A stretch of DNA of 64,000 nt, from the NCBI GenBank assembly GCA_963707215.1, contig CAVPPB010000001.1:256001-320000 (forward strand), in the 5' to 3' direction. The first letter of the stretch is position 1. Each line of letters opens with the position of its first letter. The notes under the pieces are model-generated. The model saw nothing but the letters and a program-made list of their open reading frames with translations, was not told the origin of the DNA and did not search any database. Source of the stretch: an uncultured Chloroflexia bacterium (GTDB lineage: Bacteria; Chloroflexota; Limnocylindria; Limnocylindrales; CSP1-4). This document shows, in pieces, positions 1-15,941 of the stretch. Both the position numbers and the translations under genes were made by a program.

Positions 1-509
1 GAGGCCCCCTGGACGGGCAGGGGCGCGAAGACCGCGTCCTCGATCCGATGGAAGCGGCCCTCGAACGGGGCGTCTTCCCCCGACCAGAGGTGCCGCCAGA
101 GGAGGATCGCCTCGTCGACGTAGGCCCCACGGGCGCGAAACCGGTCCGCCATCGCAAGGTTCCGGTACTCGTGCTCGTTCCAGCCGAGACCGACGCCGGC
201 GGCGACGCGCCCTCCGGTGAGGACGTCGATCGTCGCCAGCTCCTTCGCCAGGACGACCGCATTCCGCATCGGCACGACGAGGACGCTCGGCATGAGCCGG
301 ATCCGGTCAGTCTGCCCGCCGATCCAGGCGAGCGTCGTGACGATCTCGAACACCGTGCCGTAGGCCGCGGCGCGGTCTCGCCCGACGATGAGGTGGTCGT
401 CCGAACCGACCGTCCGCCAGCCGAGTCGCTCAGCGGTCTGCGCCGTCGCGAGGATCGCCTCGGGACTTGCGCCGGCGTGCTTGGTGGGCAGGATCAGGCC
501 GACATACAT
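1..509 (-). CDS. LLM-class (luciferase-like) flavin/F420-dependent oxidoreductase, 3' end outside window
   Basis: Not in the ORF track. Manual translation from ATG 509: MYVGLILPTKHAGASPEAILATAQTAERLGWRTVGSDDHLIV...VLVVPMRNAVVLAKELATIDVLTGGRVAAGVGLGWNEHEY, typical LLM motifs. Confidence 0.85.
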   Translation of the reverse strand, partial: MYVGLILPTKHAGASPEAILATAQTAERLGWRTVGSDDHLIVGRDRAAAYGTVFEIVTTLAWIGGQTDRIRLMPSVLVVPMRNAVVLAKELATIDVLTGGRVAAGVGLGWNEHEYRNLAMADRFRARGAYVDEAILLWRHLWSGEDAPFEGRFHRIEDAVFAPLPVQGA

Positions 510-802
510 CGACCCGATCGTACCCAGTCTGATCGGCGCACGACGGCGTCCCGCCACTCAAGGATCTCGGCCCAGACGACCCAGCGGCTAGCAGCCGCCG
601 GGCTGGTCGAGCTTCCTGAGCACGATCGAAGCCGTCCTGATCCGGCCGTGACAGTCACCGAGCCCCGGTCCCGACGGGCGCCGCGAACGTCGTTCGGGCA
701 CTCCGCCTCTGGACCCTTACGTTCCACCACAAGCACCCTGACCGCCATGCGTCGGGGCCGCTGACACATGGCGACCCCGAACAGGGAGCCGGAGATGGGG
801 CG

Positions 803-1207
803 ATGGACGATGTGCTGATGGCGGCGCTCCTCCTGATCGGGGCGACGACGGTCGCGCTGTACTGGATCGCGTGGCTCAGAGGCGGGAGCGACCTCCAGCT
901 GTCCGAGGACGAGGCCTACCTCAAGTTCGAGAAGGCGTTCCCGGTCGCGGACGCATGGCTCGCCGTTTGCATGCTCGTCGCCGCGATCGGGCTCCTGGCC
1001 GGTGAGTCGTACGCCTACCCGTTCATGCTCCTCGCAGGGAGTGCTGGCATCTTCCTCGGCCTGATGGACGTCACCTACGCGGTCGAGAACGGCCTGTACG
1101 GCATCGCTCGAACGTCGGCGGGGATGCGCATCGAAGCCGCGATGCACGTCATCACCCTCGGGGTCAGCGCGCTGGTGATCGTTTACGCGATGTCACGGCT
1201 CCTCTGA
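803..1207 (+). CDS. Hypothetical membrane protein (about 4 TM, 134 aa)
   Basis: Four hydrophobic segments, GGAG upstream of the ATG, coding-like codon usage. Confidence 0.75.
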   Translation: MDDVLMAALLLIGATTVALYWIAWLRGGSDLQLSEDEAYLKFEKAFPVADAWLAVCMLVAAIGLLAGESYAYPFMLLAGSAGIFLGLMDVTYAVENGLYGIARTSAGMRIEAAMHVITLGVSALVIVYAMSRLL

Positions 1208-1359
1208 CCTGCCGGGCTGTCGCCGCTCAGCTGCCTACTCGTCGACGCCCCCAGAACGCCCCGCCGGCGTCCCTCGCGTCGGACTGCATCCCCAGGCTGC
1301 CACGGCCTCCTCGGCCGCGCCCTGGGTCAACCGGACGACGTCGCAGGATCGGCGACCTC

Positions 1360-1422
1360 GGCGCGATCTCACTTCTCAGAGGGAGGAAGGCGACCAGCCC
1401 ACGGCCGGGCGACGGGGGCCGC
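1360..1422 (+). repeat. Intergenic repeat copy 1 (63 bp)
   Basis: GGCGCGATCTC-N10-GGGAGGAAGGCGACCAGCCCACGGCCGGGCGACGGGGGCCGC; 51/53 identical to copy 2804-2866 outside the 10-nt variable window. Confidence 0.9.
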
Positions 1423-1509
1423 TTCGCGACCTCCGCATCTGGTGACGCACGACCCTCCGACCGACACTCCCGCCCATCGAGTTCGTCACGGGTGCGGGAG
1501 GTGCGGGCC

Positions 1510-2018
1510 ATGCAGGACGCCGATCTGTTCCTCGAGCTGGCGGCGATCGCCGGCGTGTTCGTCGGCTTCGGAGCGCTCATCGCCGTTCGGGGCGGTGGCG
1601 CGAGCGACACGTTCGAGGTCGCCTCATGCGCGGCGTCGTCTCGATGGGGTTGCTGACGGTCGTGGGGGCCCTCGCCCCGGTCACCTTCGGCCGCTACGAC
1701 CTCTCCGAGCACGAGGTGTGGGCGCTCAGCAGCGTCGTGCTCCTGGTCGGCGTCGTCGGCGTGGCGGCTGCCATCTCCCTGAGCCCGGAGAGCAGAGCGG
1801 CAGAGATGGAGCTCCCAAGGTGGGTCGAGCGCGTCGCGATGGCGGTCTGGGTGCTCTGGACCATCGCGATCCTGCTCACGCCGATCGTCATCCTGTCGGG
1901 CGTGGCACCGGACCTCGAAGCTGCGCTCTACTTCACGGTCGTCGTGCTGATCCTGCTCTGGACCGCGTTCCTCCTCCTCCAGATGGTCTTTCGGCGGCGA
2001 GAGGCCGCGGCCGCCTGA
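1510..2018 (+). pseudogene. Membrane protein (about 5 TM) with a one-base frameshift near 1621-1625 (pseudogene or sequence error)
   Basis: GGAGGT RBS then ATG 1510 gives MQDADLFLELAAIAGVFVGFGALIAVRGGGASDTFEVA; the hydrophobic frame continues as ORF 1626-2018 (MRGVVSMGLL...). The offset is 116 nt, so one base is missing. Confidence 0.7.
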
Positions 2019-2050
2019 GACGGCCAGCCCACGACCGGGCGGGGCGGTTC
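2019..2050 (+). repeat. Degenerate intergenic repeat copy
   Basis: GACGGCCAGCCCACGACCGGGCGGGGCGGTTC immediately after the stop codon at 2018; resembles the repeat core. Confidence 0.55.
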
Positions 2051-2274
2051 GGCGGGTAGGGGTTCTCCCGCTGGACGGGCACGAGGGCCGCCGCCGACCG
2101 GCGGCCCACGACACGGCGGCCCACGGCCTTCGGCCAGGCACCAGCGCCCCCGGTGGGTGAGCGCCCCGCCGGGGCAGATCGACGAGCGAGCGGTAGATCG
2201 CTCGCGGGACCCGGGGCGGAACCTCGTACGGATGAGGACCGTCTGGTGGGAGAACGCGTCCATAGGAGGTTGGG

Positions 2275-2658
2275 ATGAAGGTCTTGCGGGTACTGCCAGT
2301 GCTGGCCGCCGCTGTAGCGGTGATGGTCGGCGCGGCGATGGTCATCGGTGCGTCGCCGGCCGGGACTCAGATCCGAGCTGAAGTCGCCCCGCACTTCTCC
2401 CAGGAGGGTCTGGTGCCGGGAGACCCACTCGCCGGGGGCACGCTGCTCCTCTACGACGGCAACGAGGTGGTGTTCAGCGCAACTCTGGATGCAGACGGTG
2501 CCGTCGTCGTCAGTCCCGATCCGGGCGTGTACGACGTGCAGGTGCAGCTCGACAGCGCGCAGGACCCCCTCTGTTCCTGGGGCGCCACGGCGTTCGGCGT
2601 CGAGTTCCCCGCGTCGTCACTTGAGCTCGAAGCAGGCTTCACCTGCGCCGGCAACTGA
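2275..2658 (+). CDS. Secreted small beta-rich protein (prealbumin/carboxypeptidase-regulatory-like, 127 aa)
   Basis: AGGAGG RBS, signal peptide MKVLRVLPVLAAAVAVMVG, 'TLDADG...PGVYDVQV' pattern, two Cys. Confidence 0.7.
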   Translation: MKVLRVLPVLAAAVAVMVGAAMVIGASPAGTQIRAEVAPHFSQEGLVPGDPLAGGTLLLYDGNEVVFSATLDADGAVVVSPDPGVYDVQVQLDSAQDPLCSWGATAFGVEFPASSLELEAGFTCAGN

Positions 2659-2803
2659 GTCCGATCTCCGTCAGGATCGCGGCGTTCGCTCTCGCTGGGC
2701 GTGCGCTGTGACCCAGGCAGGCCGGCTGAGCTTCGTCCCCTGAACTAGACGGCTCGGTGGTCGCCGGGATCCACCGTGCACGGCCCCCGCTCCGGGGCCG
2801 GCC

Positions 2804-2866
2804 GGCGCGATCTCGTTGACCCAGGGGCGGAAGGCGACCAGCCCACGGCCGGGCGACGGGGGTCGC
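2804..2866 (+). repeat. Intergenic repeat copy 2 (63 bp)
   Basis: GGCGCGATCTC-GTTGACCCAG-GGGCGGAAGGCGACCAGCCCACGGCCGGGCGACGGGGGTCGC. Confidence 0.9.
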
Positions 2867-2900
2867 AACACGCTGACCAGTCGGCCGTCCTCAGGTCAAG

Positions 2901-3146
2901 ATGAACGGCTACGACCTGGTCGCCGCGGGGTTGCTCATCCTCGCGCTCGCACCCGTGGAACTCGATCCGCTACTGATCGTCGTCAGTCTCGTTGGCCTCG
3001 GGTTCATGGCTGTCGCCTGGGTCGCATGGAACGCTCCTCAACGGCGGAGCAGCAGCGCGCTGACCTACCTGGCGATCGGCCTGTTCGTTCTGGGCTTCGC
3101 ACTCCTCGTCGCGCCGCCACTGGTCGCCCTGGCGGCCCTTGGGTAG
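2901..3146 (+). CDS. Small membrane protein (81 aa, about 3 TM)
   Basis: Almost entirely hydrophobic ORF lying between two repeat copies. Confidence 0.6.
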   Translation: MNGYDLVAAGLLILALAPVELDPLLIVVSLVGLGFMAVAWVAWNAPQRRSSSALTYLAIGLFVLGFALLVAPPLVALAALG

Positions 3147-3166
3147 GTCCGGGCTGACCCGCGTCG

Positions 3167-3200
3167 AGGCGACCAGCTCACGGCCGGGCGACGGGGGCCG
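3167..3200 (+). repeat. Intergenic repeat copy 3 (34-bp core)
   Basis: AGGCGACCAGCTCACGGCCGGGCGACGGGGGCCG; 33/34 identical to 1388-1421. Confidence 0.9.
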
Positions 3201-3336
3201 TTCGCGGTCTGCTAGCCGTCGCGGGCCGAGATGGCGAGGGTGACGAGGATCGTCACGTACCCGGCACACTGTCCCGCCGCGTAGTGGCCGGACGCGGCCG
3301 TCCATCGGGCGGCGAGGGCACGTCACGAGGGAGGAC

Positions 3337-3411
3337 TGGCTCCGGCGGTAGGATTCGAACCTACGACCAAGCGGTTAACAGCCGCCCGCTCTACCACTGA
3401 GCTACGCCGGA
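3337..3411 (-). tRNA. tRNA-Asn (GTT), CCA encoded
   Basis: TCCGGCG TA GCTC AGTGGTA GAGC G GGCGG CTGTTAA CCGCT TGGTC GTAGG TTCGAAT CCTAC CGCCGGA G CCA folds as a complete cloverleaf. Confidence 0.98.
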
Positions 3412-3559
3412 GCGGTCACGATCGCCACCGGGGCGACCGGGCGCCACGAGCGAGTCGCGCGCGAGGCGGAAGGATAGCAGGTCGGCCGCCCGATGGCCGC
3501 CGGTCCGCCGTCGGAGGCCGGCGCGGGGGCGCCTCGGAAGCCGCTGGCATACTCCCCGC

Positions 3560-4436
3560 GTGACGACCTCGCCGCTCATCCCGGTCGACGAGCTTGCCGG
3601 GCGCCTGCTGGGGACCGATCGCGATCCTGCGCTGCGGGTCTGCGATGTCCGCTGGTACCTGGGTCGCCCGGGCGAGGGACGGGCCGCCTACGAGGCAGGA
3701 CATCTCCCCGGCGCGGCCTTCATCGACCTGGACGAGGATCTCGCCGATCCGCCGGGGCCAGGGCGCCATCCCCTCCCCGACCCGGGCCGGTTCGTGGCAC
3801 GGCTGGCGGAGCTCGGCATCGGTCGAGAGAACGAGGTCGTCGCCTACGACGATGCCGGCGGCGGGATCGCCGCGCGCCTCTGGTGGATGCTCGACGACCT
3901 CGGCCACGAGTGGGTCCGCGTCCTGGACGGGGGGCTGCAGTGCCTGGACCGCGGCTGGCCTTCCGCTGATGGTCGAGGCCCTCCCCCATCCCCCGGCCGA
4001 GCCCATCGAGGCTCGCCCGTGGCGCCGCACGATCGACGCGGACACGCTGGCCGACCGCCTCGGCGAGCTCACCCTCGTCGACGTCCGCGCGCCCGAGCGC
4101 TACCGGGGCGAGGTCGAGCCGATCGACCCCAAGGCGGGCCACATCCCGACCGCGGTGAACGCGCCGATCGGCGGGAACCTCGGGCCGGAGGGCCGATTCC
4201 TGGCTCCGGTCGAGCTCGCGGCTCGGTATCGCGCGCTCGGTCCGGCCGGGCGCGAGGTCGTGCTCTACTGCGGCAGCGGCGCCAACGCCTGCCAGGGAGC
4301 CCTGGCCATGCGTATCGCCGGGCTCCCCGACCCGACCGTCTACGCCGGCTCGTTCAGCGATTGGAGTCGCGCCGACCGCGAGGTCCTCGCCGCGGCCGAG
4401 CCAGGGACACCCGCCGAGCCGGGGTCGCCCGGCTGA
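3560..4436 (+). pseudogene. sseA: Tandem-rhodanese sulfurtransferase (SseA/MST-like) with a +1 frameshift at about 3941
   Basis: N-half in the frame of 3560 (GHLPGA, GRHPLP, AARLWWML, LDGGLQ); C-half in the frame of 3594-4436 (AW.., GHIPTA, YCGSG, YAGSFSDW). One extra base at CAG-T-GCC-TGG. Confidence 0.85.
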
Positions 4437-4448
4437 CCGACCGGCAGG

Positions 4449-5846
4449 CTAGTGGCCCAGCGACCGCCAGAACCAGCGGACCGGGGCAGCCGGCGTTCCG
4501 GTGACCGCCTCGAGCCGGTCGCCGGCCCACATGAGCGCGGTCACGGCATTGACCCCGAGCCAGCGGAACGGCTCGGGCTCCCAGCGGGGCGACCGGTGGC
4601 CGACCCACGGCAGCTCGGTCAGCTCGCTCTGTCGACCCAGCACCAGGTCGGCGACCGTGCGCGCCGCCAGGTTCGAGGTCGCGACCCCGTCGCCGACGTA
4701 ACCGCCCGCCCAGGCGAGACCGCTGCTCCGGTCGAAGCCGACGGAGGGATACCAGTCGCGGGGGATGCCCAGGTTGCCGCCCCAGGCGTGGGTGAAGCGG
4801 ACGTCGGCGAGGGCCGGCAGCAGCTCGCGGAGCACGTTCCGAAGCATCCGGTGGACCCGGGCGTCGCGGTCGAAGGCCGGGCGGATCGTCGACCCGAAGT
4901 GATAGGGCGCCCCGCGGCCCCCGAAGGCGATCCGCCCGTCGGCGGTGCGCTGGCCGTAGATCTTCAGGTGCCGTTTGTCGGTGAAGGTCTCGCGCCCCTC
5001 GAGGCCGATCCGTGACAGCATCTCCGCGGGCAGCGGCTCGGTCGCCACCATGAGCGAGTACATCGGGAGGATCGAGCGCCGGAGACCCGGGATCCCCGGC
5101 GCATAGCCCTCCAGGGCCGGCAGGACGACCTCGGCCCGGATCGTCCCGTGGGTGGTCTCGACCCGACCGGGGCCGATCGACGCGGCGGGAGTCCGCTCGT
5201 GGATCGGGACGCCAAGTCGCTCGACCGCGTCGGCCAGGCCTCGCACCAGCCTGAGCGGGTCGAGGGCCGCACAGTGCGGCACGAAGGTGCCACCAAGGAC
5301 CCTTGAGCCGTTCAGATGTCGGCGGGCCTCGGTCGCGTCGAGGAGGCGCAGGTGGTCGTCGCCCAGGCCCAGGGTGCGGACGCTCGCCACGTCGGCCCGG
5401 GCACGCGCGAGCTGGGCCCGGCTCCGGGCGACCGACACGGCACCGCCCTTTCGGAAGCCGCACTCGATGCCCTCGTCTGCGGCGATCCGCCCGACCTCGT
5501 CGACCGAGCCGTCGAGCGCCGCCTGGAGGGCGAGGACACGCCCGCGGTCCGCATCGCGGCCCAGGCGACGGAACGAGGCCGGGAACATCGCCACGCACCA
5601 GCCGCCGTTCCGCCCGGACGCACCGTAGCCAGCGATCTCGCGCTCGACGATCTCGATGCGCAGGCCCGGGTCCAGGCGCTTCAGGTAGTAGGCGGTCCAG
5701 AGGCCGGTGTACCCGGCGCCGACGATCGCGACATCGACGTGGCGGTCGCCGGGCAGCCGCGGACGGGGCGCAAGCGCGCCAGGGTACAGATCGTGCCAGA
5801 GGCTCAGGTCGCGGTACTGTCCTTCGGGTAGCGGCGGCTCGCTCAC
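4449..5846 (-). CDS. FAD-dependent oxidoreductase, DAO family (PuuB/OrdL-like amine oxidase)
   Basis: [19 protein letters not shown] and WEPEPFRW motifs. Confidence 0.88.
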
Positions 5847-5944
5847 GGGGCCAGTCTAGGTGGCGACGAGCCATGGTGGACGACAGGGTCTACGCTGGTT
5901 CGGGGGCGTCCGGTGTGCGAGGCGGGCCCCCGGAAAGGACCCCG

Positions 5945-8341
5945 ATGACGGACATCGCCAAGACCCCCTCGGACCTCGGTCGCCGTCCCTACGAGGGCCC
6001 GCTCTCGCCCGCCGAGCTCGAGGGGATCGATGCCTGGTGGCGCGCCGCCAACTACCTCTCGGTCGGCCAGATCTACCTCCTTGACAACCCCCTCCTCCGG
6101 GAGCCGCTGCGTCCGGAACACATCAAGCCGAGGCTCCTGGGTCACTGGGGCACGACGCCCGGTCTGAACTTCGTCTACGCCCACCTGAACCGGGTCGTCC
6201 GCGACCGGGACCTGGACGCGATCTGGATCGTGGGCCCGGGGCACGGAGGGCCGGCGGCCGTCGCCAACGCCTACCTCGAGGGCACCTACTCGGAGGTGTA
6301 CCCCGACGTCTCGCTCGACGTGACGGGCCTCCGCGAGCTGTTCCGCCAGTTCTCGTTCCCGGGAGGTGTCGGCAGCCACGTCACGCCCGAGACGCCGGGC
6401 TCGATCCACGAGGGCGGGGAGCTCGGCTATGCACTCACGCACGCCTACGGCGCGGTCTTCGACGATCCTGACCTCGTCGCCTTCTGCATCATCGGCGATG
6501 GCGAGGCCGAGACCGGGCCGCTCGCAGCCAGCTGGCACTCGACCAAGTTCGTCAACCCGGCGATCGACGGAACCGTCGTCCCGATCCTCCACCTCAACGG
6601 CTACAAGATCGCGAACCCGACGGTGCTCGCCCGGATCTCCCACGAGGAGCTCGAGGCGCTCCTGGTCGGCTATGGTCATCGTCCGATCTTCGTCGAGGGC
6701 GAGGAGCCGGCTCGGATGCACCAGGCGATGGCGGCCGCGCTCGACGAGGCACTCGACGAGATCGGCGCGATCCAGGCCCGAGCCCGGGCCGGCATGCGGC
6801 CCGAGCGACCGCGCTGGCCGATGATCGTGCTCCGCAGCCCGAAGGGCTGGACCGGGCCGAAAGAGGTCGACGGCAAGCCGACGGAGGGGAGCTTCCGCTC
6901 GCACCAGGTCCCGCTGGCCAACGTACGGACCGACCCGTCCCACCTGGCCCAGCTGGACGCCTGGCTCCGCAGCTACCGACCCGAGGAGCTGTTCCGCGAG
7001 GACGGGGCCGTCGTCGGGTCGGTGACCTCCCAGGCGCCGCCCAGGTCGCGACGGATCAGCTCCAATCCCAAGACCAACGGCGGCCTGCTCGTCCACGAGC
7101 TGAGCATCCCCGACTTCCGTGACTACGCCGTCGAGGTGACGGCGCCCGGGACCGAGCGGAGCGAGGCGACCCGGGTCCTGGGCTCGTTCCTCAGGGACAT
7201 CATCGCCCGCAACCCGCGCACGTTCCGCCTCTTCGGCCCGGACGAGACGGCCTCGAACCGCCTGTCGGCCGTCTTCGAGGCGACCGACCGGACCTGGATG
7301 GCCGAGACGCTCCCGACCGATGACCACCTGGCACCTGACGGGCGGGTCATGGAGGTCCTCTCGGAGCACCTCTGCGAGGGCTGGCTGGAGGGCTACCTCC
7401 TGACCGGTCGGCATGGCGTCTTCAACTGCTATGAGGCCTTCATCCACATCATCGACTCGATGTTCAACCAGCACGCGAAGTGGCTGAAGATGACCCGTGA
7501 GATCCCCTGGCGCCGGCCCATCCCGTCGCTGAACTACCTGCTCTCGAGCCACGTCTGGCGCCAGGACCACAACGGTTTCAGCCACCAGGACCCGGGCTTC
7601 ATCGACCACGTCGTCAACAAGAAGGCCGAGGTCATCCGGGTCTACCTGCCCCCGGACGCCAACACGCTCCTCTCGGTCGCCGATCACTGCCTTCGGAGCC
7701 GCGACTACGTCAACGTCATCGTGGCCGGCAAGCAGCCCGGGCTCGACTACCTCTCGATGGACGAGGCCGTGCTGCACGCCACGCGAGGGATCGGGATCTG
7801 GGACTGGGCGAGCAACGATGACGGCGAGCCCGATGTGATCATGGCCTGCTGCGGCGACATCCCGACGCTCGAGACGCTGGCCGCCGTCGACCTGATGCGC
7901 CAGCATCTGCCCGACCTCCGTCTCCGGGTCATCAACGTCGTCGACCTGATGCGCCTCCAGACCGACACGGAGCACCCCCACGGGCTCTCCGACCGGGAGT
8001 TCGACACGCTGTTCACGAAGGACCGCCCGATCATCTTCGCCTACCACGGCTACCCGTGGCTCATCCACCGACTCGCCTACCGGCGGACGAACCACGGAAA
8101 CCTCCACGTCCGTGGCTACAAGGAGGAAGGCACGGTCACGACGCCGTTCGACATGGTCATGCGCAACGACCTCGACCGGTTCCACCTGGTGATGGACGTC
8201 ATCGACCGGGTACCCGGGCTCGGTTCGCAGGCAGCCGCGCTGCGCCAGACGATGTTCGACGAACGGGTCCGAGCGAGGATCCACGTGCGCGAGGTCGGCG
8301 AAGACCCGCCGGCGATCCGCGACTGGACCTGGGGTCACTGA
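5945..8341 (+). CDS. xfp: Xylulose-5-P/fructose-6-P phosphoketolase
   Basis: [40 protein letters not shown] motifs. True start ATG 5945 after GGAAAGGA. Confidence 0.97.
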
Positions 8342-12196: not shown

Positions 12197-13897
<1,701 letters not shown>

Positions 13898-13946: not shown

Positions 13947-15941
13947 TCATGGCTTGGCTCCGGTCGCGGATGGGGTCTGGACTGCCGGTCGGGCGCCTCG
14001 CCCTCGGGCGAGCAGGCGGACCTGGTCGCGCCGGCGGTCGAGCGAGCGGCGCTCGGAATCGATCTCGCGAGCGGCGCTCAGCAGCTCGCGGATGGCGGCG
14101 GTGTCGCCGCGGGCTTCGGCCTCGGCCTGGGCCGCGGAGTTGAAGGCGGCGCGCTCCTCGAGCCGCTCCGCCTCGAGGGTCAGCAGGCAGGATTCGACCG
14201 CGTAGTGCTGGCGATCGACCGTCAGGGCCGCAGGGTCGGGGCCCTGGCGGGCGTACAGCCCGATGGCCAGCGCGCGTGTCTCGTCGTCGAGGCTCTCGAG
14301 CAGCTTGGTCCGGTCGAACATGCCCGGCACGCCATGATCGTCGGGAGCCCGCATCAGGACGACAGCCCGGAGCAGCTCCCGCGCCAGCGTGGAGGGCAGC
14401 TGGTCCGGCGAGATGGAGTCGGCGACCTGGATCTGCAGCGACGGAACGAGGAGGACGAGGCGCAGGAGCTCGGCCTCGACCGGGCTGACGGCCCTGACGA
14501 CCTCCTCGGGACTGACCTGCTCGCGGGCCGCCCGGACCGCCTCGAGCGACAGGCGCGTCCCGACATGATCGCCCTCCCCTGCCCCGCCGGGCCGGGCCGC
14601 TCCCAGGGGCGACGGCTTGGCGTGGAGCACCTCCAGGAGGGTCCGCTCCTCGAGTCCGGAGCGGCGAGCCAGGATCTGGACGTACGAATCCCGGACGACC
14701 GGATCGGCGACGCGCCGGAGCGTCGGCATGACGCCGTCCACCAGGCGCTTGCGGCCCTCGGGCTTGCTGACGTCGACCCGCGCCGCGTGGTAGTCGATGA
14801 GGTAGGTCAGGATCGGGTCGGGGGCCTCGGTGGCGGTCCGCCAGGTCTCCGGTGTCTCGCGGATGACCTCGTCGGGATCCTTGCCCTCGGGGAGGCGGAC
14901 CACGCCGACGTCGGTCAGGCCCACGGAGCCGTCACCGGCCTGGACCTCGGAGATGAGCGCGTTGAGCTCGGTCACCCCGAACGTGCCGGCCGACTGGCCG
15001 GCCGGGTCCACGTCGTAGGCGAGGGCGATCCGCTTGGCGTAGCGGGTCAGCAGGGCGACCTGGCCGGGGGTCAGGGCGGTCCCCAGGGACGCGACGACGT
15101 TGGCGAAGCCGGCCTGGTGGGCCATCAGGGCGTCGGTGTACCCCTCGACGAGGACCGCCTGGCCGGACTTGCGCATGGCGCTCTTGGCCCGATCGACCAG
15201 GTAGAGGGTCCGGCTCTTGTCGAAGAGCGGCGTCGACGGTGAGTTGAGGTACTTGGGGCCCGGATCACGGCCTTCAGGCACGGCCGTCTCCAGGATCCGG
15301 CCGCCCATGCCGGTCGCGCCGCCGCTGGCATCGCGGATCGGGAAGATGAGGCGCGACCGGAAGCGGTCGTAGACGCCGCGACCGCTGCTTCGAGGCATCG
15401 CCAGACCCACCTCGACCAGCTCGGGGCCGGCGATCTGGCGACGAGACGCCAGCTGGCGGACGAGGTTGTCCCAGCCGCCGGGCGCCCAGCCGAGCTGGAA
15501 GCGCTCGATCGTCTCGTCGGTGAAGCCTCGACCCCTGAGGTAGTCCAGGGCGGGCTGGCCGGTCTTCGAGGCAGTCAGGACCGTGTGGTAGAAGGCGATC
15601 GCCGTCTCCATGACCTCGCGGAGGCGGGATCGGCGAGCGTCCTCCTGGCGGGTCCGCTCGTCAAGCTCGACACCGGCCCGTGCAGCCAGCTGGCGAAGCG
15701 CATCCGGGAACGACAGCCCGTCGCGCTCCATGACGAAGCTGAAGACGTCGCCGCCCTTGCCGCAGCCGAAGCATTTGTAGGTCTCGCGGCCGGGCGTGAC
15801 GATGAAGCTCGGCGTCTTCTCCGAGTGGAACGGACAGAGACCCTTGAAGGTGGTCCCCGCCTTCTTGAGCTGGACCGTCTCGCCGACGACGTCGACGATG
15901 CTGAGCCGGCTCTTGATCTCGGCAGTGACGCCGACCGTCAA
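13947..15941 (-). CDS. dnaG: DNA primase (TTG start)
   Basis: [15 protein letters not shown] zinc finger, KYLNSP, VEGYTD TOPRIM, KDPDE; directly upstream of rpoD. Confidence 0.97.

Follow-up and report, generated by a model that had tools for sequence, protein, structure and literature searches.

What builds an array of short, unrelated genes that all point in one direction and are each followed by a copy of the same palindromic repeat? The question is raised by a locus beside a tRNA-Asn gene in the genome of an uncultured Chloroflexia bacterium (Limnocylindrales; assembly GCA_963707215.1), which lies in a stretch of 64,000 nucleotides (contig CAVPPB010000001.1, positions 256,001–320,000) referred to below as the window. 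To our knowledge, integrons are the only well-understood builders of same-direction arrays of single-gene cassettes, and the origin of their cassettes and uniform sites is still open. The repeat of the window, designated R1, appears to be a second such marker, unrelated to integrons, which delimits single genes in several islands of this soil and estuary lineage. We put at about 45% the probability that R1 serves as a sequence-specific site bounding the cargo of tRNA-linked islands and that the arrays arise by recombination at the junction of R1 with a companion module, R2. The clustering and co-orientation of R1, its association with tRNA islands, the variable content between its copies, its sharp edges and its conserved sequence all speak for such a role. 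The comparison was based on two genomes, namely the source genome of the window (G000; 3.26 Mb in 5 contigs, 84.8% complete) and one congeneric genome (G001; 90% complete), and on fragmentary metagenome contigs.

The original prediction, made from the letters of the window alone, had described small same-strand open reading frames (ORFs) alternating with a hairpin repeat beside tRNA-Asn, and ARAGORN, Rfam, ORF and repeat searches bore this out. An R1 repeat follows each of the four plus-strand ORFs, all of which show a coding-type GC pattern, and the tRNA-Asn(gtt) gene was recognized both by ARAGORN and by Rfam (RF00005, 73.2 bits), while no other match was obtained in an Rfam scan of window positions 1–6000 at E ≤ 1 (coordinates in Table 1). 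The 25-nt core of R1, CCAGCCCACGGCCGGGCGACGGGGG, is present without mismatch at positions 1394 and 2838 and with one mismatch at 3173. No further match with up to three mismatches occurs in the 64 kb, as had been stated, and none of 100 shuffled sequences contained any match; the repetition of the core in the window is far beyond chance. The remaining, degenerate copy shows 74–79% identity to the other three. R1 exists in two forms, of which the short one is an imperfect palindrome of 33–37 nt (e.g. AAGGCGACCAGCCCACGGCCGGGCGACGGGGGCCGCT at 1387–1423), while the long one (e.g. 2776–2866) is composed of an imperfect inverted short form, a centre of ~25 nt and a short form, giving in total an imperfect palindrome of ~90 nt with bulges. 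The short form corresponds to its right arm, and the left arm is present in about half of the R1 copies. The 34-nt core that had been taken as the repeat unit is therefore only the right arm of the larger palindrome in copy 3 and, partly, in copies 1 and 4, which are partly extended.

In 22 R1 copies compared, taken from both genomes and from a metagenome contig, conservation is at least 90% in the right arm and ~70–90% in the left; orthologous coding flanks of the two genomes share 76–83% identity. The palindrome is real, since 72% of the cells in these copies were paired versus 31–47% when the partner was slid by 1–3 columns, whereas the proposal that the core folds as a two-stem hairpin gained nothing from folding analyses. 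The covariation signal was marginal (score 0.136 vs. 0.109 for shuffled data; 10 of 500 shuffles reached this score), and with this tool related sequences can reach such scores without structure. RNAalifold found no common long hairpin among the 22 copies. Folding energies were ordinary for DNA of 72% G+C: relative to dinucleotide shuffles, z lay between +0.4 and −0.8 for the long form and the three well-preserved core copies, and the degenerate copy alone folded better (z = −2.05). Given the high conservation of the right arm and the unremarkable folding and covariation, the conserved object in R1 is the sequence and not merely the shape. No U-tract is found at R1, and scans with terminator and promoter consensus sequences detected 0 sites. 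R1 abuts the stop codons of both forward and inverted ORFs, and one copy (C3:182396–182432) sits between the starts of two divergent genes. The idea that the core contains an arm-type motif of integrases, CCAGCC(C)ACGG, was also tried and rejected: sequences resembling this motif flank att in the genomes G016 and G006, but elsewhere the motif occurs at a background of 0.32 per kb.

Iterated nhmmer searches of G000 detected 18 strong R1 copies, 16 of which fall into four arrays (A–D, Table 1; the window array is B) covering ~12 kb. The arrays contain 2, 3 (plus one degenerate), 5 and 6 copies, and within each array all copies have one direction. The array reading thus survives a check for genome-wide scatter, and the statement that the window holds no further copy has to be complemented by the three arrays outside it. 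The units from R1 to R1 are 253–2858 bp long and mostly contain a single ORF, and R1 marks the unit junction for forward and inverted ORFs alike. One of the two lone copies, at C3:1266114, has a partial tRNA-Gly at a distance of 100 nt. In G001, R1 was located near contig ends, not farther than 1.4 kb from seven different tRNA genes (Val-tac, Ser-tga, Arg-tct, Leu-taa, Leu-caa, Pro-ggg and Asn), and the two copies were co-oriented in all six contigs that carry two. Only these two genomes of the 61 from the order contain the R1 pattern, and a reversed control pattern gave 0 matches. A 19-nt pattern had 81 loci in the collection of genome contigs, 7 of them in G001 and 74 as single matches in unrelated GC-rich genomes, which were taken as chance, and a 25-nt pattern matched the metagenome contigs at 2 loci only. 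At one metagenome locus, a large regulator gene is followed by a long-form R1, with tRNA-Arg(ccg) at a distance of 1 kb and no recombinase in the vicinity. No published description of R1 was found in the titles and abstracts listed for genomic islands of Limnocylindria or for integrons and attC sites in Chloroflexi.

At its right edge R1 can meet the companion module R2, which nhmmer found 17 times in G000 and no fewer than 19 times on the G001 contigs examined. The left edge of R2 is sharp at CGTTC, the same five bases that close R1; the two modules occur joined or each alone, and all three kinds of site break at this shared CGTTC. In every array R2 has the orientation of R1. The spacing in some copies of R2 is promoter-like (TGGACC, 18 nt, CACCCT, 7 nt, ATG), and a consensus promoter scan on R2 found none; we infer that R2 may be a portable promoter module near a putative leaderless start. 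Another module, R3, has 8 copies in G000 as detected by nhmmer, and the reverse-strand translations of 6 copies have a common peptide with no Pfam match. Since peptide identity is lower than DNA identity, R3 is read as a probable decayed remnant of a small reverse-strand ORF. Neither module had been noticed in the original prediction, and the same is true of the tRNA-integrated island in which the array lies.

The distal border of this island is marked by a decayed copy of the tRNA-Asn 3′ part at 560–600, which aligns with a score of 34, whereas the highest score among 300 random windows was 28. The window array is cargo carried by this island, an old insertion at tRNA-Asn that is bounded by the tRNA fragment. 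An intact equivalent of this fragment was found in G001 (contig C318, positions 644–718), where the order is R1, 184 nt, a 75-nt copy of the tRNA-Asn 3′ part (93% identical), 110 nt and R2, and the sequence after the tRNA copy is homologous to window positions 576–767. Another G001 contig, C119, opens with the same R1 as C318, followed by ~200 nt and the intact tRNA-Asn, and its conserved tRNA gene and right flank (79–83% identity) match the window from position 3314, 23 nt from the tRNA. These two layouts indicate integrase-type insertion at the tRNA, which in G001 probably occurred twice in tandem. A metagenome contig of 1425 nt (run X1) departs from the window at the same position, 3314, and continues into another long-form R1.

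Other genera of this family have ordinary islands of the kind. Relatives of the integrase at tRNA-Lys in G000 (39–58% identity over the last 96 residues) were found in 26 of 40 other family genomes, where they sit at Lys, Leu, Pro and further tRNAs, and tRNA direct repeats of 46–55 nt bound islands in G009 and G025. An R1-type array was present in none of the 6 integrase neighbourhoods examined from other genera. Directly after integrase-targeted tRNAs, a motif near TCACGCACGAA was observed at 8 tRNA loci in 6 genera, followed by a GC-rich hairpin, the stem of which resembles the outer stem of long-form R1. At loci with an integrase gene, the hairpin is followed by a pair of 8–11-nt direct repeats that differ between islands and are likely arm-type sites.

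The content between R1 copies is variable. Gene order at the locus is not invariant among relatives, since homologues of ORF1–4 are located on four or more other contigs of G001 and in other repeat contexts, so the array reading withstands this check as well. ORF1 has 60 homologues (39–96% identity), none with a named function, and ORF3 has 13 (54–98% identity); neither has a Pfam or NCBIfam family above the cut-off. ORF4 gave sub-threshold Pfam matches only, and a stretch homologous to it lies at C171:2287–2422 of G001. The ORF2 family has at least 5 copies in G001, beside tRNA-Leu(taa) and in tandem pairs, while the G000 paralogues, with 71–80% DNA identity, are at C1:748414–750261 (three in tandem) and C3:153668–154329 (one); degenerate R1-like sequence is seen at the junctions of the ORF2 paralogues in G000. 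A cassette with 77% identity between arrays A and C has the same orientation towards R1 in both, and the homology begins 10 nt past an R1 edge in array C. The locus of array C is occupied in G001 by an ABC-transporter operon between two conserved core genes. For 15 of 17 island proteins no NCBIfam family was found, and the gene for a 455-aa cargo protein of array C (C3:184324–185691; L170:7325–8692) occurred in only 5 of 41 family genomes and was not detected in G001; on these grounds the island cargo is judged to be accessory. The 455-aa protein was considered as the missing enzyme and set aside: it has no Pfam, NCBIfam or PADLOC match and shows the distribution just given. A D...E-x-K pattern was seen by eye at its N-terminus, which we take to be like that of nucleases with the restriction-endonuclease fold.

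According to the proposed mechanism, short gene modules would be inserted, lost and exchanged between islands at R1, with the crossover at its right edge, ...GGGGGCCG|TTC, where R1 meets R2. The outcome would be arrays in which small, unrelated genes for envelope proteins share one direction, each with a possible promoter of its own (R2) and a 3′ palindrome. In this reading, window positions 600–3336 are the cargo region of an old tRNA-Asn island devoid of an integrase gene. The enzyme could be XerCD, an island-type tyrosine integrase working in trans, or RecA using the 34–90 nt of identity. The stronger form of this proposal, an integrase-independent cassette system of Limnocylindrales (Chloroflexota) in which single-gene modules are shuffled at the ~35-nt R1 by crossover at the R2 junction, in tRNA-seeded arrays and by a host-recruited enzyme (XerCD or an island integrase in trans) or another one, is speculative and seems to us rather unlikely. 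If R1 is a recombination site, it would open a new exchange route for small envelope genes, and R1 and R2 would make a tractable pair of sites; if it is a passenger or a terminator module, as discussed below, the island-restricted and direction-locked repeats would still be unforeseen by current models of repetitive extragenic palindromic (REP) sequences.

In the search for an enzyme, a phage-type tyrosine integrase was found at array D only (C3:~400018–401058), converging on tRNA-Lys(ctt) and readable across three frames only. It is the sole island integrase in G000, where the other tyrosine recombinases are an XerD-like protein (encoded beside recN) and an XerC-like protein (beside topA), and neither window positions 1–6000 nor arrays A–C contain a PF00589 match. 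An integron integrase was detected neither in G000, where the best TIGR02249 score was 83.4 bits (XerD) versus a cut-off of 265 and all sub-cut-off matches were the three proteins just listed, nor in G001, which contains only two Xer-type genes (XerC and XerD) and a fragment. The transposase families covered were rve, IS110 and Y1. The Y1 transposase PF01797, typical of REP-associated tyrosine transposases (RAYTs), was found in 0 of 13 genomes including G000 and G001 and in 6 of 14 control genomes, and G000 lacks matches to serine recombinases, IS110 and rve transposases, which did match in control genomes. As the assemblies are only 84.8% and 90% complete, these results do not prove the absence of a recombinase. 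The suggestion in the original prediction that the array is served in trans by an enzyme encoded elsewhere is a conjecture.

Several observations weigh against a role of R1 as a recombination site. The left arm is missing from about half of the copies, a recombinase is linked to one array out of four, and single copies also stand behind ordinary genes. Tandem paralogues of the ORF2 type with R1 between them look like products of unequal crossing-over. Furthermore, the two youngest duplications between islands, both with 96% identity, are not bounded by R1 and indicate ordinary homologous exchange: one is shared by array A (103219–103728) and array D (399559–399052), that is, by the tRNA-Leu and tRNA-Lys islands, and is a segment of 511 bp comprising most of a 135-aa ORF and R3, while the other pairs 107937–108258 of the array A region with C3:154512–154832. 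Joints between R1 copies in metagenome contigs (1419>2838 and 3204>1388) rest on a repeat of 30–31 nt and may be assembly artefacts; because their short side lies inside the repeat, they were not counted as excisions or deletions. Another joint, 2821>3167, with a replacement of 10 letters, occurs in metagenome contigs at a depth of 2 only, and the raised summed depth over R1 bins is unusable as a measure of copy number. Neither excision nor insertion of R1 units was observed, and their mobility is a proposal from the comparison of genomes.

The best placed of the other explanations, although we regard it as unlikely, is that R1 is a selfish palindrome similar to REP sequences, REPINs (inverted REP doublets) or miniature inverted-repeat transposable elements (MITEs), the long form being mobile and the short form a decayed singlet, both tolerated in islands and unrelated to the arrival of genes. 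The short palindrome and the inverted imperfect doublet with a spacer fit the definition of REPINs given in excerpts of PMC3337134 and PMC3116915. As in REP/REPIN–RAYT systems, short GC-rich imperfect palindromes occur as singlets and as inverted doublets that form a longer hairpin, the sequence rather than the structure is kept within a lineage, here one genus, and is missing from neighbouring genera, and lone copies are found behind ordinary genes. What is lacking is a cognate RAYT and wide dispersal: no Y1 transposase was found in the 13 genomes and no IS110 or rve transposase in G000, and R1 has a mere 18 copies instead of tens to hundreds, 16 of them in four island-bound arrays. No target-site duplication was visible at the 8 long-form ends read, where terminal inverted repeats are present. 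Moreover, strict co-orientation in four arrays and in all six two-copy contigs is not expected of independent insertions. The REP/MITE-like family that the original prediction had offered as a second possibility is half right: the singlet and inverted-doublet build fits, but no RAYT was found in the genomes searched, target duplications were not visible at the ends read, and the copies are not dispersed.

It is also conceivable, and somewhat less probable, that the arrays grew by tandem accretion, each unit being the remnant of a separate tRNA-integrating element and R1 its surviving att-proximal hairpin, in the manner of the serial integration at tRNAs that is outlined for tycheposons in part of bioRxiv 10.1101/2020.12.28.424599. 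If the window island is circularized, the order becomes R1, 133 nt, tRNA 3′ part, 90 nt and R2, which is the order seen in C318. The family-wide integrases at tRNAs, the direct repeats of 46–55 nt and the tandem array of four partial tRNAs in G016 fit this explanation as well, as does the extra unit that a metagenome contig carries beside the tRNA. The islands agree with tycheposon-type islands in the tRNA 3′ end, the partial tRNA (direct repeat) at the far border, the variation at the tRNA-proximal end, one integrase family for several tRNAs and the decayed elements without integrase. However, partial tRNAs between units, one of which occurs in C318 of G001 and four in G016, are not seen between internal R1 copies in the window or any other G000 array, as a BLAST search of all 52 tRNAs against G000 found no tRNA fragment inside arrays A–D. 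The gap between R1 copy 3 and ORF4 is just 34 nt, and the quality of R1 shows no gradient with tRNA distance in arrays B and D. Array C has no tRNA and its locus holds the ABC-transporter operon in G001, and the direction of R1 relative to tRNA-Asn is opposite to that at tRNA-Leu and tRNA-Lys. Unlike in tycheposon-type islands, the boundary is an unrelated palindrome and not a partial tRNA, it is common to islands at different tRNAs and to a tRNA-less island, and the units are single genes (0.25–2.9 kb) and not whole elements. The G016 locus itself (L166, C2:257500–277499) contains direct repeats at 3985–4157, 7220–7478, 12223–12484 and 14798–14886, which consist of a partial tRNA 3′ half with conserved flanks, lie 2.5–5 kb apart around an integrase gene and represent a clear tandem-accretion array in another genus.

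Much less probable is the view that R1 and R2 form a terminator-plus-promoter module spread in fast-evolving envelope-gene clusters by duplication, unequal crossing-over and gene conversion, without dedicated recombination. R1 between tandem ORF2 paralogues, the promoter-like spacing in R2 near a putative leaderless start, the position of R1 at stop codons of forward and inverted ORFs, and recent inter-island duplications without R1 at their borders could all be explained in this way. On the other hand, the ORFs flanking R1 are unrelated in sequence, the copy at C3:182396–182432 lies between divergent gene starts, a U-tract is absent, neither promoter nor terminator came out of the consensus scans, and the conservation of the right arm, unpaired positions included, exceeds the need of a hairpin terminator. 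A further close comparison is with phage morons, autonomous promoter–gene–terminator units between genes, and with short conserved junctions that could serve homologous exchange of modules; R1 arrays differ from them in residing in chromosomal islands and in having one strongly conserved palindrome throughout.

As regards integrons, the organization of R1 arrays is like that of clustered attC sites without an integron integrase (CALINs), yet it is outside that family, membership of which was judged from end boxes, mode of conservation and integrase content. The attC consensus strings are RYYYAAC (R″) and GTTRRRY (R′), whereas the palindrome of R1 ends with ...(C)ACGGCCCCCG / CGGGGGCCGT(T), that is, ACGGCC.../...GGCCGT, and of the 16 G000 array copies 5 have a GTT behind the core, while its AAC partner is present in none. 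The absence of canonical attC ends and of an integrase, as claimed by the original prediction, was thus correct. Like CALINs and sedentary chromosomal integrons, the arrays have 2–6 same-direction palindromes of ~60–140 nt alternating with single genes of mostly unknown function, no integrase nearby and repeats homogeneous within a lineage. They differ in the many half-sites, in the location in tRNA islands, in the apparent own promoter (R2) of some cassettes, in that no IntI was found in the two genomes, in the lack of the boxes, and in that R1 keeps sequence where attC keeps structure; one of four integron/CALIN features was found, namely an array of at least two sites with about one gene per unit, and integrase, attC boxes and conservation of structure over sequence were not. 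That R1 arrays are true integron remnants, diverged attC clusters with an integrase that has been lost or is encoded in unassembled sequence, is the least probable explanation: one-direction alternation of genes and palindromes with 2–6 sites per cluster and mostly unknown cargo matches CALINs as described, with integrons reported in Chloroflexi, in the parts of PMC4889954 that deal with them, and the occasional GTT behind the core agrees, but no integron integrase was found in G000 or G001, the ends do not fit, conservation is the reverse of that of attC, and one arm is missing from half of the sites.

The features of the window and the four arrays are collected in Table 1.

Table 1. Positions of the island features and of the R1 arrays (window positions, or source-genome contig and positions where a contig is given)
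Feature	Position	Strand	Remark
Decayed tRNA-Asn 3′ part (T-arm to anticodon loop)	560–600	−	Distal island border; local alignment to 3349–3386
R2 module	691–828	+	nhmmer E = 6e-26; overlaps ORF1 start
ORF1, 134-aa predicted membrane protein (cargo)	803–1207	+	GC by codon position 0.64/0.43/0.90
R3 module	1225–1343	+	nhmmer E = 1.6e-13; probable remnant of small reverse-strand ORF
R1 copy 1, perfect core 1387–1423 with partial left arm	1359–1425	+	
ORF2, member of multi-copy membrane-protein family; frameshifted near 1624	1510–2018	+	
R1 copy 2, short, degenerate	2018–2051	+	Starts at ORF2 stop codon; nhmmer E = 0.33
ORF3, 127 aa, signal-like hydrophobic N-terminal segment (cargo)	2275–2658	+	
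R1 copy 3, full long form, core 2831–2865	2776–2866	+	Imperfect palindrome of ~90 nt
ORF4, 81-aa predicted membrane protein (cargo)	2901–3146	+	
R1 copy 4, one C>T in core	3167–3202	+	Left arm shortened, overlapped by ORF4 end
Constant 23 nt adjoining tRNA	3314–3336	.	Variable island begins left of 3314
tRNA-Asn(gtt), island anchor	3337–3411	−	
Array A	C1:101147–102217	+	Left arm of long-form R1 begins 87 nt past tRNA-Leu(caa)
Array B (window array)		+	Last R1 134 nt before tRNA-Asn 3′ end
Array C	C3:181054–185803	−	Without neighbouring tRNA
Array D	C3:394258–398397	−	tRNA-Lys(ctt) 2.8 kb away, integrase gene between

The ORF at 1510 listed by the original prediction is present, although its frame is not intact in the assembly, where a 1-base frameshift breaks it near 1624. 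Contigs from 3 of 4 metagenome runs contain an extra A behind 1624, by which the two halves of ORF2 rejoin in one frame. These 4 runs were used out of 24, and the estuary runs among them contain this population at about 95–99% identity. Other single-base indels between the assembly and metagenome contigs were observed at window positions 363, 2017 and 2170, which calls for caution with assembly frameshifts and suggests that the assembly carries indel errors and that other frameshifts, including those of the integrase, may be unreal. Whole-genome self-BLAST alone was tried for delimiting islands and proved too noisy. A defence-type gene adjoins the tRNA-Lys island, as the gene beyond tRNA-Lys (G000, C3:401373–402455, minus strand) matched the PADLOC model NsnA with E = 7.9e-29. 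Among the other tRNA genes of G000, tRNA-SeC was located at C3:1213406–1213504, and ARAGORN reported a tRNA-like gene at C1:225137–225218 with an undetermined two-base anticodon, "(cc)".

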